This document shows positions 23,518 through 59,525 of a stretch of 64,000 nucleotides of DNA, piece after piece. The number at the start of each line of letters is the position of its first letter. Position 1 is the first letter of the stretch. The DNA is from an uncultured Planctomycetota bacterium (GTDB lineage: Bacteria > Planctomycetota > JAJSAM01 > JAKLKS01): the NCBI GenBank assembly GCA_964370855.1, contig CAYJMF010000004.1:25258-89257 (forward strand), written 5' to 3'. Made by a program: the position numbers and the translations under genes. Under the pieces are notes generated by a model, which was not told the DNA's origin, made no database searches, and saw nothing but the letters and a program-made list of their open reading frames with translations.

Positions 23518-23555
23518 ACCACCGGGCGGGATGCACCCAACCCTGCGAGGCAGCC

Positions 23556-34137: not shown

Positions 34138-34536
34138 TCACCGGGCCGGCGGGGCCCCCGCCCGCTTCTCGAGGTCGGCCGCGGCCCGGAGGATCGTCTT
34201 CCGCAGGTCCTCGAGCATGAACGGCTTCGCCAGGAAGTCGAACGCCCCCAGGGTGAGGGCCTCCCGCGCGAGTTCCACGCTGGCGAATCCCGTGATCATG
34301 ATGACCCGGGTACGGGGGGACCGGTCGAGCACGTGTCGAAGGACGTCGAGCCCGTCGGTCCCCTCCATGCGCATGTCGGTCACCACGATGTCGTAGTCGT
34401 GCCCGTCGATCAGGCGGATGGCCTCGGCCCCCGTCTCCGCGGTGTCGACCTCGTACCCGGACTTCGCCAGCGCGGGTTTCAGGCGCTTTCCGACGATCGG
34501 CTCGTCGTCCAGGACAAGGATGCTGAGTCTCGCCAT
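34138..34536 (-). CDS. single-domain response regulator (CheY-like receiver, no output domain)
   Basis: MARLSILVLDDEP..VVTDMRMEG..DFLAKP. 132 aa. Confidence 0.8.
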   Translation of the reverse strand: MARLSILVLDDEPIVGKRLKPALAKSGYEVDTAETGAEAIRLIDGHDYDIVVTDMRMEGTDGLDVLRHVLDRSPRTRVIMITGFASVELAREALTLGAFDFLAKPFMLEDLRKTILRAAADLEKRAGAPPAR

Positions 34537-37146: not shown

Positions 37147-37899
37147 CTAGTGGCCGCCTCCCTTCTTGAAGACCATCCCGATGAGGAGCCCGACGGTGAG
37201 GGCGATCCCGACCGACATCGCGCCGTACAGGGTGCTCCGGTGGAACGCCATGTGCGAGATGAACCGGGGGAATCCCACGAGTTCGACCCGGAGCCGCGCG
37301 GCCTCCTTTCCCACGACCCTTCCCCCGGCCACCTGGATGACGTCGACCGCGTAGTCCCCCGGGGGGGCGACGTCGGGCCATGGAATCGCGGCCTCGAAGG
37401 CCGGGTGGTCGCCCTGCTCGAGGCGGACGGCCCCTTCGAAGGCCCCGAAGGCGCCCTGCGAACGCTTGAGGGCGAGGTACTCGCGCCGGATGAGGGCCGG
37501 GTCGGGACCCGCGGGTGCGAAGGTCGCGGCGTTCAGGACGGCCTCGACGTCGAGGAGGTTCTCCGCGATCTCCCCCGGGGGCAGGAGTCCCGCCGCGGGC
37601 CGGCTGCAGGCGGCGAGCCACAGGCTCGGGGCCCCGGAGACCGACAGGGAGCCGACGTTGGCCCAGAAGGGACCCACGCGCCCCTTCCGCTGGTACTTCT
37701 CCTCGACCGCGGCTCCCGTGATCGTGACGAAGACGTGGGCCCCGGGCACGGCGTCGCCCCGCACGCGGATCATGGCGCCCTTGAAGGTCGCGTCGATGCG
37801 GACGGGGTCGGGCTCCACGGCGAGGTCCGCGAACGCGGTGCCCGCTCCCATGGCCCCGGCGAGGAGCGCGAGGGGGATCGCGGCCTTCATGGTGCGCAT
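37147..37899 (-). CDS. secreted protein with N-terminal signal peptide and C-terminal membrane anchor; accessory to the adjacent TauE/SafE gene
   Basis: 250 aa. Signal-like N-terminus MRTMKAAIPLALLAGAMGAG. C-terminal TM ends ..KKGGGH. Start overlaps the TauE stop. Confidence 0.5.
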   Translation of the reverse strand: MRTMKAAIPLALLAGAMGAGTAFADLAVEPDPVRIDATFKGAMIRVRGDAVPGAHVFVTITGAAVEEKYQRKGRVGPFWANVGSLSVSGAPSLWLAACSRPAAGLLPPGEIAENLLDVEAVLNAATFAPAGPDPALIRREYLALKRSQGAFGAFEGAVRLEQGDHPAFEAAIPWPDVAPPGDYAVDVIQVAGGRVVGKEAARLRVELVGFPRFISHMAFHRSTLYGAMSVGIALTVGLLIGMVFKKGGGH

Positions 37900-38816
37900 C
37901 AATGTCCTCCGGCGGGGGAGAGCAGCAGGGGAGGGGCCGCCACCATGGCGTAGACCATCCTCGCGCAGACGGCGAGCACGATGCAGGCGAGGATGATCCG
38001 GAGCTGCTCGCCGCGCAGGCGTCGCGCGACGCGGGCTCCGAACTGCGCACCGACCGCGGACCCGACGGCGAGGACGATCGCCAGGGTGAAGTCGACGGTG
38101 TGGTTCACGGATGCCTGCATGAAGGTCACCCAGCTGGAGGTGAAGAGGATCTGGAACAGATCCGTTCCGACGGCGACGTGCATCGGCATGCGGAGCATGT
38201 AGACCATCGCCGGGATCATGATGAACCCGCCCCCGACGCCCATGATGGCCGCGAGCACCCCCACGAGGGCGCAGAGGGCGATGGGGACGAACACCGACTG
38301 GCGGATGCCGGACTTGGGGAAGCTCGCCTGCAGCGGGAGGCGCTCGAGCAGCGTGGCGAGCCGCGAGGGCCCCCGCCCCCCTGCGGCTTCCTTCCGGGAC
38401 CCGCGGAGCGTCCCGAGGCTCTCGAGGAACATGTAGCCGCCGATGAGGCCGAGGACGACGACGTAGGTCGCCATGATGAGGAAGTCCGCGTTTCCCATCC
38501 GGCGCAGCACCCGGATGATCTGCACGCCGACGGCTCCGCCCGCGACCCCGCCGAGCAGCATCAGGCATCCCAGCTTGTAGTCGACGTTCCCCATCCGCGC
38601 ATGCGCGAAGGTGCCCGACGCGGAGGCGGCGACGATCTGGCAGGAATCCGTCGCGGCGGCCACCGTCGGGGGTATCCCGACCGTCATGAGGAGGGGCGTC
38701 ATCAGGAACCCTCCTCCGACCCCGAACATGCCCGAGAGGAAGCCGACCAGCACGCCGAGGCCGAGGGGGAGGAGGAGGTAGATGCATTTTCCGGCGATGG
38801 GAAGGAAGATGTACAT
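37899..38816 (-). CDS. TauE/SafE (TSUP, DUF81) family permease, paralogue 1
   Basis: Duplicated GVGGGF(L/I)M motif, the DUF81 signature. ~305 aa, 8 TM. Confidence 0.8.
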   Translation of the reverse strand: MYIFLPIAGKCIYLLLPLGLGVLVGFLSGMFGVGGGFLMTPLLMTVGIPPTVAAATDSCQIVAASASGTFAHARMGNVDYKLGCLMLLGGVAGGAVGVQIIRVLRRMGNADFLIMATYVVVLGLIGGYMFLESLGTLRGSRKEAAGGRGPSRLATLLERLPLQASFPKSGIRQSVFVPIALCALVGVLAAIMGVGGGFIMIPAMVYMLRMPMHVAVGTDLFQILFTSSWVTFMQASVNHTVDFTLAIVLAVGSAVGAQFGARVARRLRGEQLRIILACIVLAVCARMVYAMVAAPPLLLSPAGGH

Positions 38817-39244
38817 GGCTGGAATCGCGATCCATCCAGGGGTTCGTGGACTCCCGGGATGCTCCCATGCCGGACCCGCTCCATGCGTCTGCGGCTCGCC
38901 GAGGCGGCCGGAGCCGTGGAACGGGCTCCGCGCATCGGCGGCACGGGGCCCGCCTCGGTCCGGGAGTCTCTCCTCCGCATGCTGCGGGGAGGAGGAGGCC
39001 GACCTCCGCGGCGGCGAGCGGCGGGCCCGCGCTTCCTTTCAGCGGTCCAACGTACACCCGTTCCTCCCCGGGGGGAAGAGGCAGGGAGCGGGGCGGACGC
39101 GGGTCGAGACGGGCGTCAAGGAGCCGCCATCGCCACCCGGGAGCGCCGCGGCGGGAGGTCCACGCCGGCATCCGGAGGGGACCGTGACCCGGGCACACCC
39201 GGCGCCGGGGGGGAAGGGCGGGGAGGAGTAGGATCCCCCTCGTC

Positions 39245-40156
39245 ATGGACCGGTGGTACGTGCACTTTCCCGTGTCGGGGGTGGACGTCTGCCTCCTCCT
39301 TCCCCCGCTGGCGGCGTTCGCGATCTCCGCGGTGACGTCCATGGGAGGGGTGTCCGGCGCGGTCCTCCTCCTGCCCTTCCAGGTCAGCATCCTGGGGTTC
39401 ACGAGCCCCTCGGCCAGCGCCACCAACTTCGTCTACAACATCGTGGCCATCCCGGGAGGCCTCTGGTGCTACGCGAGGGAGCGGCGGATGGCGTGGCCGC
39501 TGGCGTGGATCATCGCCGCCGGCACGCTGCCGGGGGTGCTGATCGGCTTCCACGTCCGGGTCCGCTGCCTGCCCGACCCCCGTGCCTTCAAGCTGTTCGC
39601 GGGGTGCGCGCTCCTCTGCTTCGGGATGTGGCTGCTCCTCCGGAACGGCGGGAAGGCGGAGTCCGCCCGCGACGGCGGGCTCCCGGCGGGACTTCCTCCC
39701 GATGCCGTTGTGCGCACGGCCTCCTTCTCGCTCCGCCGCGCGGAGATCGAGTTCCGGGGTGAGCGGTTCCCGTTCAGCGTCCCGGGGGTGTTCGCCCTGG
39801 CGCTCGCGGTCGGTGTCTTCGGCGGGATCTACGGCGTCGGGGGCGGTGCGATCATCGCGCCCGTCTGCGTCGCCGCCTTCGGCCTCCCGATCCACGCGGT
39901 GGCGGGGGCGGCGCTGGCGGGAACGTTCCTCACCTCCGTCGCCGGGGTCGTCGTCTACGGCGCGATGCCCGTCGAACCCGGCATCGCGGTCCGCCCCGAC
40001 TGGCTCCTCGGCCTCCTGTTCGGCGCCGGCGGGCTCGCGGGGACGTACGCCGGGGCGCGGCTCCAGCGGTACGCCTCCCCCCGGTTCCTCCGGGCGATGC
40101 TGGGGCTGATCCTCCTCGGGACGGCCCTGCAGTACATCCACGGGTTCCTCCGTTGA
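39245..40156 (+). CDS. TauE/SafE (TSUP, DUF81) family permease, paralogue 2
   Basis: GIYGVGGGAIIAP motif. Polytopic. 303 aa. Confidence 0.75.
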   Translation: MDRWYVHFPVSGVDVCLLLPPLAAFAISAVTSMGGVSGAVLLLPFQVSILGFTSPSASATNFVYNIVAIPGGLWCYARERRMAWPLAWIIAAGTLPGVLIGFHVRVRCLPDPRAFKLFAGCALLCFGMWLLLRNGGKAESARDGGLPAGLPPDAVVRTASFSLRRAEIEFRGERFPFSVPGVFALALAVGVFGGIYGVGGGAIIAPVCVAAFGLPIHAVAGAALAGTFLTSVAGVVVYGAMPVEPGIAVRPDWLLGLLFGAGGLAGTYAGARLQRYASPRFLRAMLGLILLGTALQYIHGFLR

Positions 40157-40186
40157 ATCTCGCCGGAAGGGCCGTCGACCGGTATC

Positions 40187-40204
40187 CGTGATTTTTCTCA
40201 CAAT
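40187..40204. promoter_or_regulatory. conserved motif cGTGATTTTTCTCACAATt (GTGA-N6-TCAC) upstream of the RR/TauE/HK operon
   Basis: One of three copies of GTGATTT(T)CT(G/C)CACAAT in this window (also at 52044 and 59526). Confidence 0.45.
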
Positions 40205-40249
40205 TTCCTGACGGCCTTCCGTCGGCGGTGCTAGCATCGATGGTCGGCA

Positions 40250-40750
40250 GTGGTCCGGCCTCCAGCGGGTGCGGCATCCCATGCTCTTGCCGGTGTCGAG
40301 CCTTCGGTCCTCGACGGGATCGTGACGGACCCCGCCGTGCCCCCGGCCGCGCGCGTCCGCGTCCTTGTCATCGACGACGAGGCGGACTTCGCGACGGCGA
40401 CCGCCGAACGGCTGGTCCGCCGGGGCTTCCACGCGGTCCCCGTCTTCGACGGCCGCGCCGGCCTGGATCGGATCGCGGCCGGCCCCTTCGACGCGGTCCT
40501 GCTCGATCTCCGGATGCCGGGGATGGACGGTCTGGCGGTCCTCCGGGAGATCCGTCGCGTCGATCCCCACCTCCAGGTCGTGGTGCTGACCGGGCACGGA
40601 ACGGTGGCTTCCGGGATCGAGGGGATGCAGATCGGCGCCGCGGACTTCCTCCGGAAGCCCGCGGACTTCGATGGTCTGGTGACGGCGGTGCAGGCGGCCG
40701 CGGAGTCCACCCGCGCCCGCAGGGAGGCCGCCCGGGGAGGTGCCCGATGA
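40250..40750 (+). CDS. single-domain response regulator (CheY-like receiver)
   Basis: RVLVIDDEADF..LLDLRMPGMDG..DFLRKP. GTG start at 40250. True start uncertain. Confidence 0.75.
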   Translation: MVRPPAGAASHALAGVEPSVLDGIVTDPAVPPAARVRVLVIDDEADFATATAERLVRRGFHAVPVFDGRAGLDRIAAGPFDAVLLDLRMPGMDGLAVLREIRRVDPHLQVVVLTGHGTVASGIEGMQIGAADFLRKPADFDGLVTAVQAAAESTRARREAARGGAR

Positions 40751-41082
40751 GGAGGATCCCGTTCAGCGCCGTCCGCCGGAGGGCGCGCCGCTTCGCCCTT
40801 CCGCTCGCGGCGGCGGCGCTGGCGCTGGCGACGTGGTGCGCGGACGCCGCGGCCGCGGGGGGAGGAAAGCCCGCGTCGAAGCTCGTCAACGTCGCGGACA
40901 CGCGGTCCCTCGAGGCGGGCTTCTCGAGGTTCGTGGCGGACGTCTACAACGAGAGCTACTGGCTCTTCGCCCTCCTCGTGGTGGTCCTGATGGCGGGGCT
41001 CGGCCTCTTCCTGGGAATCGTGGCCGATCGCCTCTTCGCCCTCCTGGGGATCAACCTGGGGAGGATGTCGCACCACGAGTGA
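40747..41082 (+). CDS. small membrane protein (signal/TM), accessory to the TauE/SafE gene
   Basis: 112 aa. ATG overlaps the RR stop. Hydrophobic helix LFALLVVVLMAGLGLFLGIV. Confidence 0.45.
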   Translation: MRRIPFSAVRRRARRFALPLAAAALALATWCADAAAAGGGKPASKLVNVADTRSLEAGFSRFVADVYNESYWLFALLVVVLMAGLGLFLGIVADRLFALLGINLGRMSHHE

Positions 41083-41100
41083 CCGGGGGAGGCGGCGACC

Positions 41101-42147
41101 ATGGGATTCTTCGACATCTACCTGCCCATCGCGGGGCTGGAGTTCAACGTCCTCCTCCTCCTGCTCATCGGGTTCACGGTGGGGGTGTGCGGGGGGTTCT
41201 TCGGGATCGGCGGGGCCTGGATCGTCACCCCGGCGCTCAACATCTTCGGGTTCCCGATGCCCTACGCCATCGGGACCGACCTCGCCCACATGGGGGGCAA
41301 GTCCATCGTGTCCACGATGCGCCACGGGAAGTTCGGGAACGTGGACACCCGGCTGGGCGTGTCGATGATCCTGGGCACCACCCTGGGGATGGAGCTGGGG
41401 GCGAACCTCGTGCTGTACCTCGAGAGCATCGGCCTGGCGGAGACGCTGATCCGCAAGGCCTACATCGTGTTCCTGACCCTCATCGGCGGCTACGTGCTCT
41501 ACGACTACCTCACCCACACGATGCGCGCGCGACGGGCCGCGGCCGGGGGGCAACCGGTGCGGGAGGAGAACACCATCGCGCAGCGGCTCCAGAGGATCCG
41601 GATCCCGCCCATGGTCCATTTCAGGGCCTCCGGGGTCACCTGCTCGCTCTGGATCCCCGTCCTCGTCGGCCTGATGACCGGCGTCGTGGCGTCGGTCCTG
41701 GGGGTGGGAGGCGGGTTCATCCGCATGCCCGCGCTCGTCTACCTGATCGGGTGCCCCACGGTGGTGGCCGTGGGCACGGACCTCTTCGAGGTGATGATCA
41801 CCGGGGCCTACGGCGCGTTCACCTACGGACTCAAGGGCCGCGTGGACCTCGTCGCCGCGATGTGGATGCTGCTGGGCGCGGCCGTCGGGGCCCAGATGGG
41901 CACGGTCGCCGTGAAGTACGTGCGCGGCTACTCGATACGGCTGCTGTTCGCCATCACCATCTTCATCGCGTGCGCGTCGGTCCTGCTGAAGCAGCTCGAG
42001 ATGAACCTCCCCTCGGCGATCCTCATCCTCACCGCGGGCATCGTCATCAGCGGGGTGATCCTGGTGCTCCTCGTGAAGGGGATCGCGGCGGAACGGGCCG
42101 CCGCGAGGGGGACCGGCCGGGCCGGCGGGACGGGAGGCACGCCATGA
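41101..42147 (+). CDS. TauE/SafE (TSUP, DUF81) family permease, paralogue 3
   Basis: GIGGAWIVTP and GVGGGFIRMP motifs. 348 aa. Confidence 0.8.
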   Translation: MGFFDIYLPIAGLEFNVLLLLLIGFTVGVCGGFFGIGGAWIVTPALNIFGFPMPYAIGTDLAHMGGKSIVSTMRHGKFGNVDTRLGVSMILGTTLGMELGANLVLYLESIGLAETLIRKAYIVFLTLIGGYVLYDYLTHTMRARRAAAGGQPVREENTIAQRLQRIRIPPMVHFRASGVTCSLWIPVLVGLMTGVVASVLGVGGGFIRMPALVYLIGCPTVVAVGTDLFEVMITGAYGAFTYGLKGRVDLVAAMWMLLGAAVGAQMGTVAVKYVRGYSIRLLFAITIFIACASVLLKQLEMNLPSAILILTAGIVISGVILVLLVKGIAAERAAARGTGRAGGTGGTP

Positions 42148-42452
42148 GGAGGAAGGGGTGGACCCTCGCCGCGGCGGCGGTCGCGGCGCTCCTGCCGGGC
42201 TGCTGGCGGGGGCCCGCGGTCGTCCAGGGCACGGTCGTGAGCTTCGATCGGGAATCGAAGGTGGTGGTGGTCCTGGACGAGAGGGGCGGGGCCCGGTCCG
42301 CCTTCGACGTCTCGGGCGCGGAGATCGGGGCGGAGCCGGCCGAGGGGGACAGGGTGCGGCTGGCCTACAGGGAGGAGGAGGGGAAGCGGGTCGCCTCCCG
42401 GCTCATGAACCTCACCCGGCAGGCGGAGATCGGCAAGGGCTCCGGGCACTAG
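42144..42452 (+). CDS. small putative lipoprotein (LLPGC lipobox) coupled to the TauE/SafE gene
   Basis: 102 aa. ATG overlaps the TauE stop. Ends ..GKGSGH. Confidence 0.4.
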   Translation: MRRKGWTLAAAAVAALLPGCWRGPAVVQGTVVSFDRESKVVVVLDERGGARSAFDVSGAEIGAEPAEGDRVRLAYREEEGKRVASRLMNLTRQAEIGKGSGH

Positions 42453-42475
42453 CCCGGCGGACCGGGAGCGGACCC

Positions 42476-42880
42476 ATGGGCGGAGAGCCGGGCCGGGATC
42501 CCATCCGCGTCCTCCTCGTCGACGACGAGGAGACGTACCGCGAGACGCTGGCCAAGGTCCTCCGCCGCCGCGGCATGGACGTGACGACGGCCGGAAGCGG
42601 ATCCGACGCCGTCGAGCGGCTCCCCGGGGCCGTCCCCGAGGTCGTCGTCCTGGATCTCCGCATGCCGGGGCTCGACGGCCTGGACACGCTGAGGGAGATC
42701 CGGCGGCGGGAGCCCGCGGCGCGCGTCATCATCCTGACGGGCCACGGGACCCCGGAGGCGGGCCTCGCGGCGATCCGCGGGGAGGCCTGCGACTTCCTGC
42801 TCAAGCCCGTGGTCGTCGATCGCCTCGTGGAGGTCATCGAATCGGCGGCGGCCGAGGCCCGCCGATCGGGCGGCCGCTGA
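42476..42880 (+). CDS. single-domain response regulator (CheY-like receiver)
   Basis: RVLLVDDEE..VLDLRMPGLDG..DFLLKP. Confidence 0.8.
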   Translation: MGGEPGRDPIRVLLVDDEETYRETLAKVLRRRGMDVTTAGSGSDAVERLPGAVPEVVVLDLRMPGLDGLDTLREIRRREPAARVIILTGHGTPEAGLAAIRGEACDFLLKPVVVDRLVEVIESAAAEARRSGGR

Positions 42881-42884
42881 GGCC

Positions 42885-44549
42885 ATGGACCACCGGGACT
42901 ACGGCGCGCTGTTCCGGGGCACCGTCGGGAGGATGGTCCTCGTCTCGGTCGCCCCCATCCTCGCCGTGGGGGCGGTCGGCTTCCTCCAGTTCTCCCGGTA
43001 CAACCGCGCCATCGCCCTGGACCAGCACGCCGCCATCGTGCGCCAGCACCGCGAGTCCGTCGGGGCCTTCCTCGACGGACTGACCGCCCAGCTCACGACG
43101 CTCGCGCACCAGTACTCGCTCTCCGAACTCGCCGGGGGGGAGCTGGAGCGCGCGTTCCGCGTCATCCGGAGGAAGGAGGGGGTCTTCACGGACATCGGCG
43201 TCATCGACTCCCGGGGAGCCCACGTGAGGTACGTGGGGCCCTACGATCTCTCCTCCAGGAACTACCGGGAGACGGAGTGGTTCCGGCTGGTCGTGGAGAA
43301 GGGAGTGCACGTCAGCGACATGTTCCTGGGGTACCGGGGAGTGCCCCACTTCGTGATCGCGGTGCGGCGCGACGAGGGCCCGGACTTCTGGATACTCCGC
43401 GCGACGGTGGACACCGACTACTTCAGCCGGATGGTGGACGCCACCCGGGCGGGAAGGACCGGCGAGACGTTCATCGTCAACCCCGAGGGGCTGCTCCAGA
43501 CCGCGACCCTCCACGGGGGGAGGGTCCTGACCCCCTCCGGGCTCCCGGACATCGGGCCCCACGAGGGTGTCCGCGTCCGGGAAGTCGATTTCGACGGGCG
43601 GACCTTCACGTGCACCTCCACGTGGCTCGCCCGGCCGCGCTGGCTCCTGGTCTTCCGCCAGGAGAACACCGACCTGTACGCCCCTCTCCGGAGGGCCACG
43701 GCGTGGGGACTGGCGGCCGTGCTGGCCGGGGCCGCGGGGGGGGTGGGGCTGGCGGTCGTCGTGGCGCGGCGGCAGGTCGGGATGATCCGGAAGGCCGACG
43801 GGGAGAAGGAGGCGCTCGTGGGGAGGCTCCTCGTGGCGGGGAGGACCGCCGCCGTGGGCGAACTGTCCGCCGGGGTGGCCCACGGGATCAACAACCCGCT
43901 GGCGACCATCGACGTCCTGCGCACGTGGATCGCCGACATCGCCGGAGGAGGGCAGCCCGCCGGGTCGGACCGCGCCGAGATCCTGGAGTCGGCGGCCAGG
44001 ATCGGCGAGCAGGTGGCCCGCTGCAAGGCGATCACCGGGGGGCTGCTCTCCTTCTCGCGGCGCGTGGAGGCGAAGGCGGAGGCCGTCGATGTCGTCCCGC
44101 TCCTCCGGGAGCTGGCCGCCATGGCCTCGGCCAGGGCCGGGGTGGAGGGCGTCGCCCTCGTGCTGGAGCTGCAGCCGGCGCCTCCCGTCTTCGCCTCCTC
44201 CTCGCACCTCCAGCAGGTGTTCATGAACCTCGTGAACAACGCCATCGACGCCGCGGCCGGACGGCCCGGCGGGCGGGTCTCCCTCCGATCGGGGTCCGAG
44301 GCCGGAAGAGTGAGGATCGACGTCGTCGACAACGGGTGCGGGATCACCGGGGAGAACATGGCGAGGATCTTCGTGCCCTTCTTCACGACCAAGGCCGTGG
44401 GCAAGGGGACCGGGCTCGGGCTCGCCATCGCCCACGGCCTGGTCCGGAGCCTGGGGGGCGAGATCCGGGTGGAGAGCGAGGCGGGGGAGGGGGCGACCTT
44501 CACCGTGCTCCTCCCGCCGGCGGCGGGGTCCGCCGGCAGCCGCGCCTAG
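42885..44549 (+). CDS. sensor histidine kinase with extracytoplasmic Cache-like sensor domain
   Basis: Two TM segments flank a ~250-aa periplasmic region. H-box AGVAHGINNP. HATPase G-box. Paralogue of 47699..49345. Confidence 0.85.
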   Translation: MDHRDYGALFRGTVGRMVLVSVAPILAVGAVGFLQFSRYNRAIALDQHAAIVRQHRESVGAFLDGLTAQLTTLAHQYSLSELAGGELERAFRVIRRKEGVFTDIGVIDSRGAHVRYVGPYDLSSRNYRETEWFRLVVEKGVHVSDMFLGYRGVPHFVIAVRRDEGPDFWILRATVDTDYFSRMVDATRAGRTGETFIVNPEGLLQTATLHGGRVLTPSGLPDIGPHEGVRVREVDFDGRTFTCTSTWLARPRWLLVFRQENTDLYAPLRRATAWGLAAVLAGAAGGVGLAVVVARRQVGMIRKADGEKEALVGRLLVAGRTAAVGELSAGVAHGINNPLATIDVLRTWIADIAGGGQPAGSDRAEILESAARIGEQVARCKAITGGLLSFSRRVEAKAEAVDVVPLLRELAAMASARAGVEGVALVLELQPAPPVFASSSHLQQVFMNLVNNAIDAAAGRPGGRVSLRSGSEAGRVRIDVVDNGCGITGENMARIFVPFFTTKAVGKGTGLGLAIAHGLVRSLGGEIRVESEAGEGATFTVLLPPAAGSAGSRA

Positions 44550-44714
44550 AAGCGGTTTCACAGGCCCCCGCGGCCCCGCCGGGGGCGGCGGGGGGCCGTC
44601 TGCAGCGTCGGCCCTCCTCGCCTACCCTCCTGGGTATGTCTTCGTCGGGCCTCCTTGCATCCTGCCCCCCGGCGCCCCCGTCGCGACCACGGGGGCTTGT
44701 GAAACCGCTTCTAG
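44546..44714. repeat. 17-bp perfect inverted repeat (agaagcggtttcaca / tgtgaaaccgcttct) flanking a 132-bp GC-rich spacer between convergent genes
   Basis: ctagaagcggtttcacag at 44546-44563 and cttgtgaaaccgcttctag at 44696-44714. The inner GC hairpins may act as a bidirectional terminator. Confidence 0.5.
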
Positions 44715-47272: not shown

Positions 47273-47287
47273 GGGGCTCGCCAGAGC

Positions 47288-47677
47288 CTACCGGGAGGAG
47301 GGCCGGGAGCGCCGGTTCGCGGCCGCTCGGCGGATGGTGCCGAGCAGCTCGTCCACCTGCACCGGCTTCAGGAGGTACTCGAAGGCGCCGAGTTCCATCC
47401 CCCGGACCCCCAGCTCCACGGAGGCGTGCCCGGTGAGGAGGATCACCTCGGTCTCCGGGAATCCGTTCCTCATGCGCCGCAGGAGGTCCAGGCCGTCCAT
47501 CCCCGGCATCTTCACGTCGACCACGGCGCAGTCGAAGTCGGTCCCGGAGAGCGCGGCGAGCGCCTCCACCCCGGACCGGGCCGTGGTGCAGTCCAACCCC
47601 CGCCTGCCCAGCAGGGTCGCCGTGGGCTCGAGGAACTCGACCTCGTCGTCCACCAGGAGCAGCTTCAGGTCCGCCAC
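47288..47677 (-). CDS. single-domain response regulator (CheY-like receiver)
   Basis: MADLKLLLVDDE..VVDVKMPGMDG..EYLLKP. 129 aa. Confidence 0.8.
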   Translation of the reverse strand: MADLKLLLVDDEVEFLEPTATLLGRRGLDCTTARSGVEALAALSGTDFDCAVVDVKMPGMDGLDLLRRMRNGFPETEVILLTGHASVELGVRGMELGAFEYLLKPVQVDELLGTIRRAAANRRSRPSSR

Positions 47678-47698
47678 TTCCCGCCTCCTCCCGCCCGG

Positions 47699-49345
47699 TC
47701 AGGCGTTCTCGGGCTCCAGGGGGAACCAGAGCGTGAACGTCGTCCCCCTGCCCGGCGCGCTCTCGACGCCGATGCGGCCGCCGAGGCCGTGCATGATCTC
47801 GCGGCACAGGGCCAGGCCGAGCCCGGAGTGGATTCCCGGCCCCGACTTGGTCGAGTAGAACGGTTCGAACACCCTCTGCAGATCCCCGGCGGGGATGCCG
47901 GGACCGTCGTCCGCCACCACCACCTCGACCCCGCCTCCCGCCGCCCGCACGGCGAGCCCGAGTTGGCCGTCCCGTCCCATGGCGTCCACGGCGTTGTTGA
48001 TCAGGTTCAGGAAGACCTGCTGCATCCGGGAGAGGCTCGACCGGAGGATCGGGACCCCGGGCCCGTAGTCCCGGACGATGCGGATGTCCGACGCCTGGAT
48101 CTCCCTCTCCACGAACCCGACCGTCTCCTCGAGGGCGGCGGCGACGTCCACGGGCTCGAGGTCCGGCCCCACCCGGCGGGAGAAGCCGAGGAGGCGGTGG
48201 GTCACCTTGCGGCCCCTCTCGACCTGGGCCTCGATCTTCCCCAGCCGGTCCCGGAACTCCCCGGCCCGCGGGAAGTCCGTGCCGTCGGCCAGGGCGTCCG
48301 CCAGCACGCCCACCTGGGCCTGGATGATGGCCAGGGGGTTGTTGATCTCGTGGGCCACGCCGGCGGCCAGCCGCCCGATGGCCGCCATCTTCTGGGACTG
48401 CGCCACCGACTCGTAGAGCGCAGCGCGCTCCGCCTGGAGGCCCCGGAGCTGCCGGAGGCGGTACCTCGCGACGAGGGCCGCGGACAGCGGGACCAGGCCG
48501 AGGCAGGCCAGGAGCCCCCAGAGGAGCGCGGGGTGGACGTCGGCGATGGAGTCCCCGGGCAGCGCCTGCCTGGCCACGAGCACCCATCGCTCCCCCCGGA
48601 GCCACGCGTTGGCGACGAGCTGGTCGTCCTGCCGGAGCATCCTCACGCCGGTGTGCACGGGGATCGGGCCGAGGTCCGCCTTCTCCATGAGGCGATGCGC
48701 GGGGGAGTAGCGGGTCTGGTACTCGCCGGCCCTGTTCAGGATGAACACGTCCGCCCCGGACTCGAGGCCGCCCTCGCGGACAAGGTCCGAGAGCCGGTCG
48801 GTGTCGATCGTAGCCCTCAGGATGAAGGCCCGGTCGCCGCTCCGCTTCGTCACCGCCATGACCATGTGCGGGAAGCGGCGGAACCCCAGGAACACGTCGC
48901 TCTCGTACCGTCCGCGAACCATTGCCTGGTGGAACCAGTCCTCGCCGCTGTAGTCCTGGTCCTCGAGGCTGTAGGGTCCCGCGTAGGCGATGTGGCGGCC
49001 GTCCCCCCCTATCAGGCCGAGATCGATGATGGCCCCCTGCCCCTGCCGCATCTGGTCGAGCAGGAACTGGATCACCACCGGGTTCGAGAGCTCCGCGACC
49101 GGCAGGGACGCGGCCACGAGGTCCAGGTCCCGCAGCTTCTCCTCGAGGAACAGCTCGATCGTCGCCCTGCGGTTCTTGACCATGGCCTCGAGGACGTTCC
49201 TCGCCCTGGCCTCCAGACCGGCCTGGTTGGCGGCGATCCCGGCGAGCCCCATGGCGGCGGTGGGCAGAAGTCCGAAGAGGAGGAGCACCCGGAACATCGA
49301 GCCCAGCAGCTTCCGGTAGGTGGTGGGCGCGGACTCAGCCTTCAT
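47699..49345 (-). CDS. sensor histidine kinase with extracytoplasmic Cache-like sensor domain
   Basis: H-box AGVAHEINNP. HATPase domain. Periplasmic domain homologous to the 42885..44549 kinase. Confidence 0.85.
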   Translation of the reverse strand: MKAESAPTTYRKLLGSMFRVLLLFGLLPTAAMGLAGIAANQAGLEARARNVLEAMVKNRRATIELFLEEKLRDLDLVAASLPVAELSNPVVIQFLLDQMRQGQGAIIDLGLIGGDGRHIAYAGPYSLEDQDYSGEDWFHQAMVRGRYESDVFLGFRRFPHMVMAVTKRSGDRAFILRATIDTDRLSDLVREGGLESGADVFILNRAGEYQTRYSPAHRLMEKADLGPIPVHTGVRMLRQDDQLVANAWLRGERWVLVARQALPGDSIADVHPALLWGLLACLGLVPLSAALVARYRLRQLRGLQAERAALYESVAQSQKMAAIGRLAAGVAHEINNPLAIIQAQVGVLADALADGTDFPRAGEFRDRLGKIEAQVERGRKVTHRLLGFSRRVGPDLEPVDVAAALEETVGFVEREIQASDIRIVRDYGPGVPILRSSLSRMQQVFLNLINNAVDAMGRDGQLGLAVRAAGGGVEVVVADDGPGIPAGDLQRVFEPFYSTKSGPGIHSGLGLALCREIMHGLGGRIGVESAPGRGTTFTLWFPLEPENA

Positions 49346-51884
49346 GGTCCCTCCGGAACGCGTAGTCCCCCGCGTTGAAGGCGTCCTCGTACTCCTTCAC
49401 CGTCGCGTCGGAGGTCAGCGACATGTCGAGGTGGTTCACGTACCCCATGACCAGGCCGACCGTGGCCAGGGCCTCCTCCATCGCCTCCGGGGGGAGGTGG
49501 CGCACCCTGGCGTTGACGAGGTCCGCGGCCTGGTCGCACTCGAACCCGCGCGCGGAGAGGAGGCGCCTGATGAGGACCGCACGGCGGCTCCTCTGCTCCA
49601 CCCCCGTGGCCCCCCCGACGAAGCGGAAGGAGGCGTGGTTGGACTCCACCCTGTCGCAGACGCGCGCGTCGACGGTCGAGAAGTGGTACCCGATCCGCGA
49701 GTTCAGGCTCATGGAGTCGGAGGAGATGAAGGCGTAGGAGGGTTCGCCCATGGGCCGCAGGCGCTGGTCCTGGTCGAAGTTGTAGTTGACGACGGCGGAC
49801 ATGAACCCCCGGAGGGACACGGGCCGGAGGGTCCGCCACCGCAGGCGCGGGTCGGTCATGCCGCGCCAGAGCGCCCTCATCGGCGCGCAGGCGACCTGGT
49901 CCATCGTGACGTCGCCTCCCGGCGCGCCCGGGGCGAGTCCGCCGCCGAGATCGAACACCCGGCAGTCGATGGGCACGGACGAGACGAGGCGGCGCGCAGG
50001 CGTTCCCCCGTTGACGGCCCCGTCCCCGAGTTCGAACATCTCCTCGACCGTCGCCTGGTGGCAGAAGCGGATGATGTCGTGGATCGTGCGGCACTCGCCG
50101 GGGGAGTAGCCGCTGGCCTGGCGATCGCGCAGGGTCAGGGGGACGATCAGGTCCTTGACGGAGGCCAGGCGCTCGACGTTGGGGTTGCGCGGCCCCGCCG
50201 GGCGCTCCGCGGCCCCCGCGAGGACCGCCTCGACGCGTCCCCGGTAGACGACACCGGCGTCGGCGTCCACGGTCACGACCTCGCCGTCCGGCGGAAGGAC
50301 CGCGGTGGCGGTCCGGGTCGCCAGCAGGGCGGGGACGCGGAGTTCGCGGGCCACGGTGGCCAGGTGGCCGGTCACCTCCCCCATGTCGGCGACGAGGGCC
50401 GCCGCCCCGGGAAGGAGGACCGCGAACCGGGGGTCCGCTTCCGCGACGGCGATCACGGACCCGGGAGCGCAGCCGAGGACGTCCGCGTCGGACCCGACGC
50501 GCCTCAGGGGGCCGGACCCCGCGCCCCTGCTCGCCCGGGAGCCGCCCTCGAGCAGGACGGCCGCCCCCGGGACCCGCGCGCCGGTGGGGCGGTCGGCCTG
50601 CTCCGCGTGCCGGGGCTGGGGCCGCACCTGGAGCACGTGGACGCGTCCGTCGCCGTCGACGGCCCACTCCATGTCCAGGGGCATCCCGAACCGGTCCTCG
50701 AGGCGCCACGCGGCGTCGGCGATCTCCAGGGCGAGTCCCGGGGAGAGGATCGCGCGGCCGGACAGGGACGCGTCGAGGTCCACCCGCTCCACCCCTCCGG
50801 CGGCCGCGCTCCGGAGGATCCCCGCCTGCACCCCCGTGCGGTACGAGGCGACCTCCCGGCGCTCGCGGTCCACGTAGCAGGAGTCCGGCTCCGCCGACCC
50901 GTCCACGGCGGAGAGCCCGAGGCCCCGGACCGCCTGGATCAGGGTCCGCTGGCCGAGGGAGGTCGCGCAGGCGCCGTAGAGCACCCCGGCCGCCCGCGCC
51001 TCCACCATCCGGACCACGCAGCAGCACATGGCGACCTCGTCGTCCTCGAAGCCCCGCCCCAGGCGGTAGGCGATGGCCTGCGGCGAGTACTTGCCCGCGA
51101 CCACCTGCCGGAACGCCTCCTCCAGGGCCGCGGGGGGGACGTTCAGGAGGGATCGGTACTGGCCGGCGAAGGACACCTCCATCCCGCCCTCCTGGAGGGC
51201 GCTCGAGCGCACCGCGAGCCGGTCCCCGGGGGAGAAGGAGGCCGCGCCGGCACGGAGCGCGGCGGCGACGGCGGCGGGCAGGGGAGACGCGAGGATGGCG
51301 CCGGTGATCCCGGCGGAGGCCCTGAAGCAGGACGCGACGTCGCCCGGATCCGCGCCCTCCATCCCGGCCGCGATCCGATCCCCCAGGCCCCCCTCCTCCA
51401 TGAGGGCGCGGTAGGCGGCGACCGTGGTGGCGAACCCGTCGGGGACCCGTCCGCCGAGGACCCTGCGCGCCTCCCCGAGGAAGGCGCTCTTCTGCCCGAC
51501 GACCTCGGACAGCGATGCGTCCACGTCGGCGAGGCCTAGGACCATCCCGACCTCCCGCAGCGAGGGCGTGATCTCGACCCCGCGGGCGATCCCGCTCTTG
51601 AGGCTCTCGAAGAGCGGGACGAGATCGCCGTACCTGTCCTCCGTCATCCGGTTCAGGTGGACCACCATCCGGTAGGTCTGGACCATGACTCCGGCCACGA
51701 GGCGGCGGAGTTCCGCCGCGGAGAGCCTCCCGGAATCCAGGGCCTCCTGGATGCGCTCCACGTGTCCCAGGGCGGAGTTGTTCGCGTGCAGGACTTCACG
51801 GAATGCGGCCATGCGGGACTCGAGGGGCGGTCCCTCGCCGTGCCCCCGACCCAGGAGTCTGGAGACGATGCCGCCGCGGGACAT
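49335..51884 (-). CDS. PpsA-like PEP-utilising dikinase paralogue 4
   Basis: Motifs GQKSAFLGE, AVRSSALQEGG.EVSFAGQY, LDMEWA, GEVTGHLATVARELRVPALL. Its 3' end overlaps the downstream HK start by 11 nt. Confidence 0.8.
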   Translation of the reverse strand: MSRGGIVSRLLGRGHGEGPPLESRMAAFREVLHANNSALGHVERIQEALDSGRLSAAELRRLVAGVMVQTYRMVVHLNRMTEDRYGDLVPLFESLKSGIARGVEITPSLREVGMVLGLADVDASLSEVVGQKSAFLGEARRVLGGRVPDGFATTVAAYRALMEEGGLGDRIAAGMEGADPGDVASCFRASAGITGAILASPLPAAVAAALRAGAASFSPGDRLAVRSSALQEGGMEVSFAGQYRSLLNVPPAALEEAFRQVVAGKYSPQAIAYRLGRGFEDDEVAMCCCVVRMVEARAAGVLYGACATSLGQRTLIQAVRGLGLSAVDGSAEPDSCYVDRERREVASYRTGVQAGILRSAAAGGVERVDLDASLSGRAILSPGLALEIADAAWRLEDRFGMPLDMEWAVDGDGRVHVLQVRPQPRHAEQADRPTGARVPGAAVLLEGGSRASRGAGSGPLRRVGSDADVLGCAPGSVIAVAEADPRFAVLLPGAAALVADMGEVTGHLATVARELRVPALLATRTATAVLPPDGEVVTVDADAGVVYRGRVEAVLAGAAERPAGPRNPNVERLASVKDLIVPLTLRDRQASGYSPGECRTIHDIIRFCHQATVEEMFELGDGAVNGGTPARRLVSSVPIDCRVFDLGGGLAPGAPGGDVTMDQVACAPMRALWRGMTDPRLRWRTLRPVSLRGFMSAVVNYNFDQDQRLRPMGEPSYAFISSDSMSLNSRIGYHFSTVDARVCDRVESNHASFRFVGGATGVEQRSRRAVLIRRLLSARGFECDQAADLVNARVRHLPPEAMEEALATVGLVMGYVNHLDMSLTSDATVKEYEDAFNAGDYAFRRDHEG

Positions 51885-52043
51885 CCGGGCTCCGCAGGGC
51901 CGCCGCGCGACCCGCGCGGGGTGATCCGCGCGGGCCGCTCGCGGCGCCCGTCAACCGGCCGCTAGATCCCCGATCCTATTCGGTCCCGGGGACTTCCGCG
52001 GCTCCTTCCCCCCTGCCCCGGGCGACGGCCCGTGACCAGCAAT

Positions 52044-52061
52044 CGTGATTTTCTGCACAAT
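52044..52061. promoter_or_regulatory. conserved motif cGTGATTTTCTGCACAATa in the divergent intergenic region between the PEP-like operon and the CMPK-like/BON gene
   Basis: Second copy of the GTGATTT(T)CT(G/C)CACAAT motif. 424-bp intergenic region. Confidence 0.45.
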
Positions 52062-52308
52062 ATCGAAGGACCCTGTTCCGGCCCCCTGCTAGGATCCCGG
52101 GCGAGATCGAGACCGGTCCGGCGACGTTCGGACGATGTGCACCATGTCCTGGTCCTTCGCGAGCCGCCCTTCCGCGCCGCGTGCGCGTCCCGCGCGCCGG
52201 CCTCCCCCTCCCGGCGATCTCCGGCCCCGCCCCCGGGAGCGGGCTCCTTCGAGGCGGGTCGCGCCCGTGCCCCCGGGGGCGGCGGGCGCGGGAAGGGGGT
52301 GAGTTCCC

Positions 52309-53142
52309 GTGGCCATCATCACGATTTCAAGGGGTTCGATGAGCGGGGGGGAGGCGCTGGCGACCCTGCTGGCCCGGGACCTGGGCTGCCCCGTCCTCGG
52401 CCGCGAGGTCGTGCTCGAGGCGGCCGCCGCGATCGGGGTCCCCGAGGAGACCCTCGGGCAGAAGTTCGAGCGGAGCCCGGGGCTCTGGGGGCGGCTGACC
52501 TCGGACCGGCGCGTCTACGTCGTCGCGGTCCAGGCGGCGCTGGCCGAGCACGCGGCCACGGGCCGTCTCGTCTACCACGGGCTCGCGGGGCACCTCCTGC
52601 TCAAGGGCGTCCCGGCGGTCCTCCGGGCACGGCTCATCGCGCCGCTGGAGATGCGCGTCCGCACCGTCATGGAGCGCCAGGGCCTGGGGCGGAGCGCCGC
52701 GGTGGAGTACATCGAGAACGTCGACGAGGACCGCGTCCGCTGGACCAGGTTCATCTACGGCGTCGACTGGCGGGACCCGGCCCACTACGACCTCGTCGTG
52801 AACCTCGAGAACATCTCCATCCCCGCCGCCGGCGAGATCATCGCGCGGGCCGCCTCCCGGGTCGAGTACGCGATCACGCCGCCGGTCCTGAAGGCGCTCG
52901 CCGACTTCCGCCTGGCCTGCCGGGTGAAGGTGGCCCTGGCCGTGAACCCCCAGACGCGGGGAATCGACCTCAAGGTGCGGGCCGACGGGGGCGCCCTGAC
53001 GGTCGAGGGCGACCTGCCCGCCGCCGGGATGCTCACCCGCGCCAGCCGAAGGGACGAGGAGGAGGTCCTGCGCACCGCCCGGGAGGTGCCCGGCGTGGTC
53101 GACGTGGCGCTGGACCTCAGGCGGTACGACCCGTCCCTCTGA
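52309..53142 (+). CDS. cytidylate-kinase-like P-loop protein with C-terminal BON-like domain (paralogue of 29184..29999)
   Basis: GTG start. MAIITISRGSMSGGE.. ~45% identical to the other copy. Confidence 0.6.
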   Translation: MAIITISRGSMSGGEALATLLARDLGCPVLGREVVLEAAAAIGVPEETLGQKFERSPGLWGRLTSDRRVYVVAVQAALAEHAATGRLVYHGLAGHLLLKGVPAVLRARLIAPLEMRVRTVMERQGLGRSAAVEYIENVDEDRVRWTRFIYGVDWRDPAHYDLVVNLENISIPAAGEIIARAASRVEYAITPPVLKALADFRLACRVKVALAVNPQTRGIDLKVRADGGALTVEGDLPAAGMLTRASRRDEEEVLRTAREVPGVVDVALDLRRYDPSL

Positions 53143-53167
53143 ACTCGACCTTCCCGAAAGAGGACCC

Positions 53168-53356
53168 GTGAACTGGATCACCTGGCTTCACGAACTGGGG
53201 CGGGACGCGAACGCCGGGGCGCCGGGGTTCCAGGCGGGCGCTTCGTACCTCCTGGTCTCCGTGTCGATGCCCGTGGCCATCGGCCTGTTCGTGGGATTCG
53301 GCTTCCGCCTCGTGGAGGCCGTCTTCGGGATCCGGCTCGGGAAGGGGGGGCACTGA
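53168..53356 (+). CDS. small hydrophobic protein (62 aa) coupled to the TauE/SafE gene
   Basis: The TGA overlaps the ATG of the downstream TauE gene. One TM helix. Ends ..GKGGH. Confidence 0.35.
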   Translation: MNWITWLHELGRDANAGAPGFQAGASYLLVSVSMPVAIGLFVGFGFRLVEAVFGIRLGKGGH

Positions 53357-54273
53357 TGTCGGCCGGCGACTTCCTCCTGGACCTCGGGCACTTCCCCTGG
53401 CTCATCCTCTTCGGCCTCGTCATCGGCGTCATCGGGGGGTTCTTCGGCGTGGGCGGGGGCTTCCTGATGGTCCCGATGCTGAACGTCGTCTTCGGGATCC
53501 CCTACAACATCTGCGTCGGGTCGGATCTCGGCCAGATGTGCGGGATGTCCACGGCGGCCACCGTGCGCCACATGCGCTTCGGCAACATCGACTTCAAGCT
53601 GGGGTTCCTGATGATCGTGGGGACCGCGACCGGGGTGGAGCTGGGCGCGATCCTCCTCGAGCTCCTGAAGCGGGCGGGGGAGACCACGATGACGGTGGTC
53701 ATGAGCCTGATCTACGCCGCCCTCCTGCTCTTCCTCGGTCAGGCCATCGTCCGCGAGTCCCTGCGGACGATCAAGGCGGGGGGCGGGGAGGGCGACGGGG
53801 GCGGGGGCGTGCCTCCGGCGTCGGGAGTCATGCTCCGGCTCCGCACGCTGAAGCTCCGGCCCATGGTGAGCCTGCCCGCTTCCGGGATCGCCTCCGTCTC
53901 GCTGTGGGTGATCCTGGGCATCGGGTTCGCCACGGGGGTCCTGTCGGGGATGCTCGGCGTGGGCGGCGGCTTCATTCGGATGCCCGCCCTCGTCTACATC
54001 CTGGGCTGTCCCACGGTGGTGGCCGTGGGGACCGACCTCTTCGAGATCATGTTCAGCTCCGGGTACGGCGTCTTCTCCCACTCCATGAAGGGGAACGTCC
54101 ACCTGGTCCTGGTCCTGGCGCTCCTGATCGGGACGACGATCGGAGCCCAGATCGGGGCCTCCTACACCCGGAAGGCGGGGGGGCCGCGCGTCCGGCTGGG
54201 CTTCGGCTGCCTGGCCTTCGTGGGGGTCCTGATGGTCGCCGTCAAGCTCTGCCTCAAGCTGACGGGGCATTGA
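53356..54273 (+). CDS. TauE/SafE (TSUP, DUF81) family permease, paralogue 4
   Basis: FGVGGGFLMVP and GVGGGFIRMP motifs. 305 aa. Confidence 0.8.
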   Translation: MSAGDFLLDLGHFPWLILFGLVIGVIGGFFGVGGGFLMVPMLNVVFGIPYNICVGSDLGQMCGMSTAATVRHMRFGNIDFKLGFLMIVGTATGVELGAILLELLKRAGETTMTVVMSLIYAALLLFLGQAIVRESLRTIKAGGGEGDGGGGVPPASGVMLRLRTLKLRPMVSLPASGIASVSLWVILGIGFATGVLSGMLGVGGGFIRMPALVYILGCPTVVAVGTDLFEIMFSSGYGVFSHSMKGNVHLVLVLALLIGTTIGAQIGASYTRKAGGPRVRLGFGCLAFVGVLMVAVKLCLKLTGH

Positions 54274-58508: not shown

Positions 58509-59418
58509 TCGCCGCCTCCCTTCGAGGCGATGTCCACCCACGTCTTCCTGCCGTCGGCTCCCAGGTGCGGCGCCGCCCAGGTGGGTGACTGGCGGAGCAT
58601 CGTCCCGAGTTCCCTCTCCATGGGGCTTCCGGCCGCGAGGGGGCGGTCCTCCCACCGGACCTGGTGATAGGTGAAGTACTTGGCGACGAAGTGCATCATC
58701 TGGCTGAAGGGGAGGTAGGCCAGGAACACGAGGGCCACCACGAAGTGGAGGGCGAGGCCCCCGGGGACGGCCGCGGGGGGCCGGGCGGCGAGGAGGGCTC
58801 CCGCGAACGCGAGGACGTCGCCGGGGAAGTCCCCCGCGGAGAGGATGGCGGCTCCCCCCGTCGCGAAGAGCGCGGACAGGAGGAGGAGGTTCAGGAGGGC
58901 GACGGGCGTGGTGATCAACCTGAGCTTCGGATCCAGGAGGCGGCTCGCGAGGAGGCCGAGGGCGCCGAAGGCCCCCAGCCCGTAGGCCGTCCCCGCCAGG
59001 AGGGGGAACCCCGTCGCCATCACTCCCCATCCCGGGCCCTCCACGCCCGCGACGGCGGCGGCGCCCCGGAGGAGCGCCAGGCCGGCGGCGGCGGCCAGGA
59101 GGTACAGGCCCAGGTGGAAGGGGAAGGAGAACCACCAGAGCCGCCGGTTGTGCTCCCACAGGGCCTTGAGGAAGAGGACCTCCCTCAGCATGTAGGCCAG
59201 CTCCGCGGCATGGGACTCCTTCCGCGGCGCCTTCCACCACTCGTACTCCTCGAGGTAGGAGCCCCCGTACCGCCCGCGGCCCTTCTCCTTCGGGACCGGG
59301 GCGAGCTCCCACCGCAGGTGCACGGGCATCCTCCAGATCCGCAGGCACCGGAGGACGAAGGCGACGGCGAAGACGGCGACGGAGCCGTAGGACAGAGCCA
59401 GCAGCGTCGAGCCCGCCA
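58505..59418 (-). CDS. DsrM/NarI-like membrane cytochrome b (second DsrMK-like module)
   Basis: Polytopic. The LPFSQMMH motif is like DsrM's LPFSKLLH. The start is uncertain: an internal ATG at ~59418 or TTG at 59524. Confidence 0.65.
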
Positions 59419-59525
59419 TGGGGGCGCCCCTCTCGACGGCGAGGATCTCCGCGCTCCGGGAGTCGCCGGCTCGCGGAGCGGAGGTTTCCTCGGAGGCCCG
59501 GGGCCGCTTCCGGTCCGCGGGCAAC

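Follow-up and report, generated by a model that had tools for sequence, protein, structure and literature searches.

TSUP-family permeases with small partner proteins and histidine-terminated tails as candidate sulfur-oxyanion transporters in a planctomycete sulfur locus

Here, we describe four permeases of the TSUP (DUF81, TauE/SafE) family, T1 to T4, encoded with small partner proteins in a sulfur gene locus of an uncultured Planctomycetota bacterium. The DNA analyzed, in the following called the window, comprises 64,000 nucleotides (nt) of contig CAYJMF010000004.1 (assembly GCA_964370855.1, positions 25,258 to 89,257, forward strand) with a GC content of about 72%. Three of the permeases are closely linked to partner genes that are conserved in other genomes, a terminal histidine is common to three unrelated membrane-protein families of these modules, and all four lie in an island of two-component, cytidylate kinase-like and PpsA-like genes. 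Our reading, tentative and held with a little less than even confidence, is that the TSUP proteins and their subunits act as sulfur-oxyanion permeases within a conserved sensing and servicing island; gene context is the basis for the proposed substrate. The permeases and their partners are the following:

37147-37899, minus strand: P1, Alph_Pro_TM/TIGR02186-type partner of T1, tail KKGGGH (PF09608, 144.4 bits, cutoff 24.5)
37899-38816, minus strand: T1, TSUP permease, 305 amino acids (aa), ending PAGGH (PF01925, E 1e-52, 179.7 bits)
39245-40156, plus strand: T2, divergent TSUP permease, 303 aa (PF01925, E 1e-37, 130.1 bits)
40747-41082, plus strand: P3a, small single-pass subunit, probable member of the DVU0150 family, ending RMSHHE (NF040783, 69.4 bits, cutoff 70)
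41101-42147, plus strand: T3, TSUP permease, 348 aa, in a DVU0149-like position (PF01925, E 3e-43, 148.6 bits)
42144-42452, plus strand: P3b, small lipoprotein, lipobox LPGC, ending GKGSGH
53168-53356, plus strand: P4, 62-aa single-pass subunit, truncated DVU0150-like according to hhalign, ending GKGGH
53356-54273, plus strand: T4, TSUP permease, 305 aa, ending LTGH (PF01925, E 5e-41, 141.5 bits)

The four permeases proposed in the initial annotation are all genuine family members, scoring 130.1 to 179.7 bits against a PF01925 (TauE) gathering cutoff of 32.6 bits. The same annotation had credited each of them with a duplicated GVGGGF signature. This is exact in both halves of T1 and T4 only, whereas the first half is degenerate in T2 (GVSGAV, GVGGGA) and T3 (GIGGAW, GVGGGF). 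A glycine-rich motif is present twice in each of T1 to T4, as in a duplication of 4+4 transmembrane (TM) segments, and a crude scan yielded five to eight hydrophobic segments for each protein. T1, T3 and T4 share 37-41% identity with one another; T2 is the outlier with 25% identity to T1 and has neither a coupled partner nor a His tail. We collected 120 T1 homologues of 60-100% identity, and the best 120 T4 homologues are 74-100% identical, with orthologues of 74-89% identity spread over Acidobacteriota, Thermoanaerobaculia, Vicinamibacteria and other metagenome-assembled genomes (MAGs). A search of the T4 profile against PDB sequences returned no solved TSUP relative. With the YfcA equivalog model NF007909 (cutoff 383 bits), T1 reached 41.8 and T4 18.6 bits; judged by these scores, the TSUP proteins of the window are clearly not YfcA-like.

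The partner proteins predicted alongside the permeases also proved to be real. P1 far exceeds the PF09608 cutoff but scores only 59.6 bits with the narrower TIGR02186 equivalog (cutoff 255). Its AlphaFold2 model (predicted local distance difference test score, pLDDT, 92.6) runs from a signal peptide through two beta-sandwich domains and an amphipathic helix to a TM helix at the C-terminus, and yielded only generic Ig-like or beta-cup matches in Foldseek. P3a lies just under the cutoff of its family model, and PF28216 is recorded on a protein identical to it. P3b reaches 21.8 bits with DUF4881 (PF16222), under the gathering score of 27, and has orthologues of 30-56% identity in more than 40 loci, located downstream of T3. 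P4 gave no direct match to the DVU0150-family hidden Markov model (HMM); hhalign relates it to P3a and the DVU0150 family with a probability of 93.6% (E 2e-7) and aligns its terminal His with a conserved His of that family. The P4 gene lies next to the T4 orthologue in 13 of 13 loci examined. Among the more distant T4- and T3-like genes of Chloroflexota, an open reading frame (ORF) for an 80-100-aa single-pass protein is mostly found directly upstream.

Translational coupling, previously suggested for three of the permeases, is evident from the gene junctions. T1 and P1 share TGATG (1-nt overlap), as do P4 and T4; T3 and P3b share ATGA (4-nt overlap), as do the stop codon of the receiver gene RRa (see below) and the start codon of P3a. 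The spacer between P3a and T3 measures 18 nt and carries a GGGGGAGG Shine-Dalgarno site. Given the conservation of partner genes beside them, this TSUP clade seems to consist of permeases that combine with small subunits. On this view the four TSUP proteins are secondary permeases, and T1, T3 and T4 would each function in a complex of several subunits. For T3 and T4, one of these would be the small DVU0150-like protein with a single TM pass whose gene directly precedes that of the permease, and T3 would also have the lipoprotein encoded downstream. The subunit of T1 would be P1, with its two beta-sandwich domains in the periplasm and its membrane anchor at the C-terminus.

Several of these proteins end in histidine, namely T1 (PAGGH), P1 (KKGGGH), P3b (GKGSGH), P4 (GKGGH) and T4 (LTGH). 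The initial annotation had left it between a codon or GC artefact and a shared C-terminal motif, and conservation in other genomes decides for the latter. His is the last residue in 115 of the 120 T1 homologues, 113 of which end in GH, and in 115 of 150 Alph_Pro_TM representatives of 27-56% identity, typically as ...FK(G/K)xG(G/A)H. All 13 P4 orthologues are His-terminated, all 65 DVU0150-family partners end in HHE or EH, and 27 of 44 P3b orthologues have the terminal His. In T4 orthologues, His is among the last three residues in 65 of 120 cases; T3 tails show no conservation. Tails of this kind also occur at loci lacking Pps-like genes. Judging from the positive-inside rule, together with the model of P1, the tails of T1, P1, P3a and P4 should be cytoplasmic.

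The Gly-Gly-His tails could alternatively be a functionless by-product of the 72% GC content and of Shine-Dalgarno sites of coupled downstream genes. In favor of this, the Gly-Gly codons of T1 (GGAGGA CAT TGATG) and P4 (AAGGGGGGG CAC TGATG) double as ribosome-binding sites of the next genes, and the T3 tail GTGGTP and the RRa tail RGGAR likewise include GGGAGG or GGGGAGG within their codons. However, the tails of P1, P3b and T4 are not followed by a coupled gene at a fitting distance, and a Shine-Dalgarno site has no need of the His that is so widely retained in T1 and Alph_Pro_TM proteins. P1 orthologues of just 25-30% identity keep (K/R)(K/R)GG(G)H, for example RRGGGH, despite unrelated DNA downstream, and a T4-like protein from a genome with 45% GC ends in GGVMGH. 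None of about 30 other ORFs of the window with high GC at third codon positions (GC3; above 0.88 in the real genes) ends in His. Only for the Gly-Gly codons in T1 and P4 does a Shine-Dalgarno or GC origin suffice, and it was rejected for the His; as an account of the tails it is largely refuted and hardly tenable. Since the His is conserved beyond the needs of ribosome binding, the tails are not such an artefact, and we regard the terminal-His tail as a real feature common to three unrelated membrane-protein families.

That conservation in three unrelated protein families could also be taken as a sign of metal handling: the complexes would transport or buffer a cation such as Ni, Co, Fe or Zn, with the terminal His and its free carboxylate, on a flexible Gly linker, as a metal ligand at the cytoplasmic mouth. 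In cobalt transport, small single-pass subunits with His-bearing C-termini exist (CbtB), and the magnetosome protein MamO contains a TauE domain (a weak NCBIfam match). Yet each tail offers one His and not a His-rich stretch, the tail of the lipoprotein P3b would be periplasmic, genes for metalloregulators, metallochaperones or metal enzymes were absent from the loci examined, and neither Pfam nor NCBIfam linked the proteins to a metal-transport family. We consider metal transport improbable.

Sulfur-oxyanion transport, the reading that we prefer, draws on the neighborhoods of the permeases. The gene map of the window was derived from Pfam and NCBIfam scans, the coordinates of qmoA and dsrAB being set by translation and Pfam, and contains these sulfur genes:

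4789-7214: aprBA
8530 to about 13278: qmoABC
about 13300-14530: sat
about 15005-15304: dsrC
about 15764-20873: dsrMKJOP
about 20950-23214: dsrAB
23220-25232, plus strand: dsrD-like ORF and dsrL-like gene, together, after dsrAB
ending at 26679: dsrN
after dsrN, up to 29164: siroheme-synthesis genes, assigned by eye from translations
56898-59422, minus strand: second DsrMK-like (DsrK-like/NarI-like) pair, right of the island, followed by rex and hemA

Pfam confirmed sat, aprBA, qmoAB, dsrC, dsrK, dsrO, dsrP, dsrAB and dsrN. The dsrD-like ORF was assigned by eye and has no Pfam match; the dsrL-like gene encodes an NAD(P)-binding, GltD-type protein (NF009410, 518 bits). The DsrK-like protein of the second pair reaches 331.7 bits with the DsrK HMM, under the cutoff of 400.

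As the initial annotation had remarked, no SulP, CysZ or DASS transporter is visible in the window: a six-frame scan for TM helices and hydrophobicity, together with Pfam scans of the annotated genes, detected no SulP, DASS, CysP or E. coli-type CysZ. The only polytopic membrane ORFs in the six-frame scan were those for QmoC, DsrM, DsrP, the NarI-like protein and the four TSUP proteins, and the latter are hence the sole transporter candidates in the window. In four other lineages, related TSUP genes are neighbors of sat-cysC, of cysH-sat or of dsr/qmo genes. T3-like and T1-P1 genes lie amid genes for dsrAB, DsrC-like and DsrMK-like proteins in Dehalococcoidia (loci L056 and L057), nine Anaerolineae-type loci contain a T4-like gene followed by a Usp gene and a sat-cysC fusion, a MAG assigned to Pseudomonadota (L083) has the order cysH-sat-TSUP, and a metagenome locus (L136) the order sat-P3a-T3. 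At locus L172 (GCA_016218915.1, JACRCQ010000031.1, 1-20939), T1-P1 and CK2-62aa-T4-Pps-Pps, where CK2 stands for a Cytidylate_kin2-like gene and Pps for a PpsA-like gene, lie between dsrOP/siroheme genes and qmoABC-rex, which mirrors the placement of the island in the window. For a TSUP protein whose gene accompanies sat, cysC or cysH, import of sulfate is the simplest reading.

The literature is in line with this idea. For sulfate reducers, in two of which no other sulfate-transporter candidates exist, TSUP proteins have been put forward as candidate carriers of sulfate (Marietou et al., 2018; PMC5840216), and the TSUP protein CysZ of Corynebacterium glutamicum is a characterized sulfate transporter (PMC5840216). 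In Desulfovibrio vulgaris, the cluster DVU0145-0150, from which the DVU0150 family takes its name, has been assigned to 'transmembrane transport' (PMC4641369); it is induced during sulfate-free syntrophy and repressed upon return to sulfate (PMC4265775). Such regulation fits a scavenging uptake system, although it is no proof of one. The likeliest cargo of the TSUP proteins of the window across the cytoplasmic membrane would be a sulfur oxyanion, with sulfate import as the best guess, and some of the paralogues may move sulfite or thiosulfate.

The island that houses the permeases spans 28 kb (29184-56917) and contains four TSUP genes, five PpsA-like genes, two Cytidylate_kin2(-BON) genes, three histidine kinase genes and four stand-alone receiver genes. 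Apart from the permeases and partners already given, its genes are:

29184-29999, minus strand: CK2a, Cytidylate_kin2 plus BON, left edge of the island (PF13189, PF04972)
30115-31605, plus strand: HK1, HAMP histidine kinase (Pfam; gene call on the identical contig L089)
31602-34118, minus strand: Pps1, PpsA-like paralogue (Pfam; L089 gene call)
34138-34536, minus strand: RRd, stand-alone receiver between Pps2 and Pps1 (L089 gene call; receiver HMM)
34553-37000, minus strand: Pps2, PpsA-like paralogue downstream of T1-P1 (Pfam)
40337-40750, plus strand: RRa, stand-alone receiver, 137 aa (PF00072; L089 gene call)
42476-42880, plus strand: RRb, stand-alone receiver (receiver HMM matches; L089 gene call)
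42885-44549, plus strand: HK2, histidine kinase (Pfam HATPase_c, dCache_1, HisKA)
44711-47272, minus strand: Pps3, PpsA-like paralogue, convergent with the T3 operon (Pfam)
47288-47677, minus strand: RRc, stand-alone receiver (PF00072)
47699-49345, minus strand: HK3, dCache histidine kinase (Pfam)
49335-51884, minus strand: Pps4, PpsA-like, first gene of the Pps4-HK3-RRc-Pps3 operon (Pfam)
52309-53142, plus strand: CK2b, Cytidylate_kin2-like, first gene of the T4 cassette (PF13189, E 8e-36)
54308-56917, plus strand: Pps5, PpsA-like, last gene of the T4 cassette (PPDK_N, PEP-utilizers)

Portions of the island are found again in Acidobacteriota and Desulfovibrionaceae as well as in further MAGs. 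The T4 cassette is found in the order CK2-62aa-T4-Pps at 13 of 13 orthologous loci. The order P3a-T3-P3b recurs in about 30 metagenome loci, and RRa-P3a-T3-P3b accompanied by a convergent Pps3-like gene in about 20-30; the Pps3-like gene is situated 3' of P3b in about 20 loci. The order Pps4-HK3-RRc-Pps3 is also present in L001, L013, L095, L122 and L143, and T1-P1 pairs occur in L009, L010, L013, L057, L088 and L172-L174. A Desulfovibrionaceae MAG has the order T1-P1-Pps-receiver-Pps and L173 the same order without the second Pps gene, both alongside a histidine kinase/sigma-54 regulator pair and a Usp gene; at one further locus T1-P1 is followed by two Usp genes and a Pps gene is absent. In L017, L088, L172, L173 and L174, Usp genes are immediate neighbors of T1-P1 or of T4-like TSUP genes; the island of the window has none.

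The five Pps-like paralogues are 30-39% identical to one another and combine an ATP-grasp domain and a swiveling phospho-His domain with a conserved C-terminal domain of about 300 aa in place of the phosphoenolpyruvate (PEP)/pyruvate TIM-barrel. Pps5 scored 240-242 bits with the PEP synthase models TIGR01418/NF005057, far from their cutoffs of 598-740, the match covering model positions 15-465 only, and its matches to PDB sequences end near residue 560. The C-terminal domain itself has no match in Pfam, NCBIfam or PDB. Its AlphaFold2 model (pLDDT 77.6) retrieved nothing from PDB at E<0.01 in Foldseek, where only weak arginine-kinase/McsB-like matches with a TM-score of about 0.18 appeared. CK2a and CK2b are 50% identical, a BON match in Pfam being confined to CK2a, and both carry an N-terminal loop SRG(T/S)xSGGE where a Walker-A motif would read GK[ST]. 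The dCache_1 match of HK2 is below the Pfam cutoff (33.7 versus 45 bits). The four stand-alone receivers possess no output domain and each adjoins a PpsA-like or TSUP gene, which suggests regulation via protein-protein contact and not via transcription. Presumably, signal sensing and the control or servicing of the transporters fall to the kinases (two of them Cache-type by a Pfam match, which is under threshold for HK2), the receivers, the Cytidylate_kin2-BON proteins and the five PpsA-like ATP-dependent phosphotransferases.

Several observations weigh against sulfur-oxyanion transport. Substrates of TSUP proteins are diverse and poorly known, and the presence of four paralogues argues for more than one of them. 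The most constant neighbors are Pps-like, CK2 and two-component genes and not sulfur enzymes; most loci with a T4 cassette (L001, L004, L007-L013, L171) have no sat, apr or dsr gene within 10 kb, a flank that the island itself can exceed in length. In an Acidobacteriota MAG (L004-L006, 7145-8707, minus strand), a DASS (Na_sulph_symp) gene stands divergently beside CK2-62aa-T4-Pps. Finally, the TSUP proteins of sat-adjacent loci are only 45-50% identical to those of the window and are relatives, not orthologues. The sulfate/sulfite reading of the initial annotation is partly supported, by context at the loci with sat-cysC, cysH-sat, dsr or qmo genes, and did not take the Pps-like, Cytidylate_kin2-BON and two-component neighbors into account.

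The permeases might instead transport what the PpsA-like enzymes use or make, an organic or phosphorylated metabolite, sulfonate or osmolyte, the island being a self-contained system for sensing, uptake and activation and the proximity of dsr, apr and sat being incidental to the lineage. Pps-like genes accompany T1-P1, T3 and T4 modules in Acidobacteriota, Desulfovibrionaceae, Acidithiobacillales-labelled and other MAGs, and sulfur genes are missing within the 10-kb flanks at most cassette loci. The scaffold of PpsA, rifampicin phosphotransferase and PigC, to which NCBIfam detects partial matches in the Pps-like proteins, is known to phosphorylate varied small molecules, and the ligands of Cache sensor kinases are usually small extracellular molecules. 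However, T1-P1 and T4-like genes retain partners and tails without any Pps-like gene in L057, L174 and the Chloroflexota loci, the adjacency to sat, cysH or dsr recurs in four unrelated lineages, and a candidate metabolite cannot be named. On balance we regard this alternative as rather unlikely. We give little credence to a more elaborate scheme in which the PpsA-like enzymes would dock on the permease complexes via their swiveling phospho-His and C-terminal domains and phosphorylate the conserved, flexible Gly-Gly-His tails of the TSUP protein and its small subunits in the cytoplasm, so that an ATP-driven His-to-His relay resembling the phosphotransferase system, controlled by Cache kinases and receivers, would switch or energize sulfate uptake.

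As candidates for sulfur-oxyanion transport, the TSUP proteins remain plausible, an interpretation already in the literature (PMC5840216). New are their conserved multi-subunit make-up, a terminal-His motif that three unrelated families of membrane proteins share, and the constant presence nearby of two-component systems and of PpsA-like enzymes with an unrecognized C-terminal domain. Our literature searches found no paper on TIGR02186, none linking TauE with cytidylate kinase and PEP synthase, and no relevant one on TauE with water dikinase. The sulfate importers of dissimilatory sulfate reducers are still unsettled: in D. vulgaris, any one of the three SulP genes can be lost, and the only candidates in some sulfate reducers are TSUP proteins (PMC5840216). 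The locus supplies defined, testable units, a permease plus a small subunit, with or without a lipoprotein or beta-sandwich partner; permeases expressed without their partner may have failed in past assays. It also exposes two uncharacterized features, the terminal-His tail and a PpsA-like family that travels with TSUP proteins.

Some further observations concern the remainder of the window. A pair 59% identical to the DsrK-like/NarI-like pair at 56898-59422 adjoins a T3-like TSUP gene in the Dehalococcoidia locus L057. Directly after aprA, a 100-aa Cys-rich ORF (CPHCGG...C..DACPYY; 7302-7604, plus strand) is of high GC3 and matches no family in Pfam or NCBIfam; the approximately 900 bp between it and qmoA (7604-8530) show no ORF that would be convincing from the coding frame pattern. 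At the left edge, upstream of aprBA, a large protein of the DUF5682 family (857 bits) is encoded (32-2374, plus strand). An Rfam scan of the window gave no matches.

Comparison with known systems sets the permeases of the window apart from E. coli YfcA, which belongs to the same Pfam family but shares at most 28% identity in partial alignments (BLAST E>0.01), ends in ...HWLGMN and has no partner gene. The initial annotation had named loss of partners and tails, together with a grouping among housekeeping TSUP proteins, as grounds for giving up its proposal; orthologues elsewhere keep both partners and His tails, and neither HMM nor BLAST places the TSUP proteins with YfcA. TauE and SafE, the namesakes of PF01925, which T1 to T4 all match well above threshold, are sulfite or sulfoacetate exporters assigned from sulfonate-degradation operons. 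Their export role differs from the one proposed here, a sulfonate-degradation operon is absent from the locus, and we know of no accessory subunits for either protein. PpsA, rifampicin phosphotransferase and PigC/RedH share the N-terminal ATP-grasp and the swiveling phospho-His domain with the Pps-like proteins but differ in that the domain of about 300 aa replaces the TIM-barrel and scores stay far under the equivalog cutoffs.

Parallels also exist among characterized or proposed sulfate transporters. C. glutamicum CysZ, compared by description and not by sequence, is a TSUP/DUF81 protein encoded in a cys operon, as relatives of T3 and T4 are encoded beside sat-cysC and cysH-sat, whereas partners, His tails and a Pps-like island have not been described for it (PMC5840216). 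The 'Clade B' TSUP proteins DVU2958, Adeg_0175 and Dret_2118, likened here by description, are highly conserved and proposed as sulfate transporters, in an account from which partners, tails and Pps-like neighbors are absent (PMC5840216); a T1 orthologue of Desulfovibrionaceae is divergent from a sigma-54 regulator gene, comparable to DVU2958/DVU2956 (PMC8359166). A further counterpart is the DVU0150-DVU0145 cluster of D. vulgaris, comprising a hypothetical protein, a DUF81 membrane protein, lipoproteins and a response regulator. It is controlled by sigma-54 and DVU0151, whereas a -24/-12 site (TGGCAC-N5-TTGC, up to one mismatch) is absent from the window, and sigma-54 control of the genes studied here was rejected on that ground. 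P3a scores just under the cutoff of the DVU0150 model, and the order small protein-TSUP-lipoprotein-receiver, likened by description and not by the sequences of the cluster, resembles the one reported for D. vulgaris (PMC4265775, PMC4641369).

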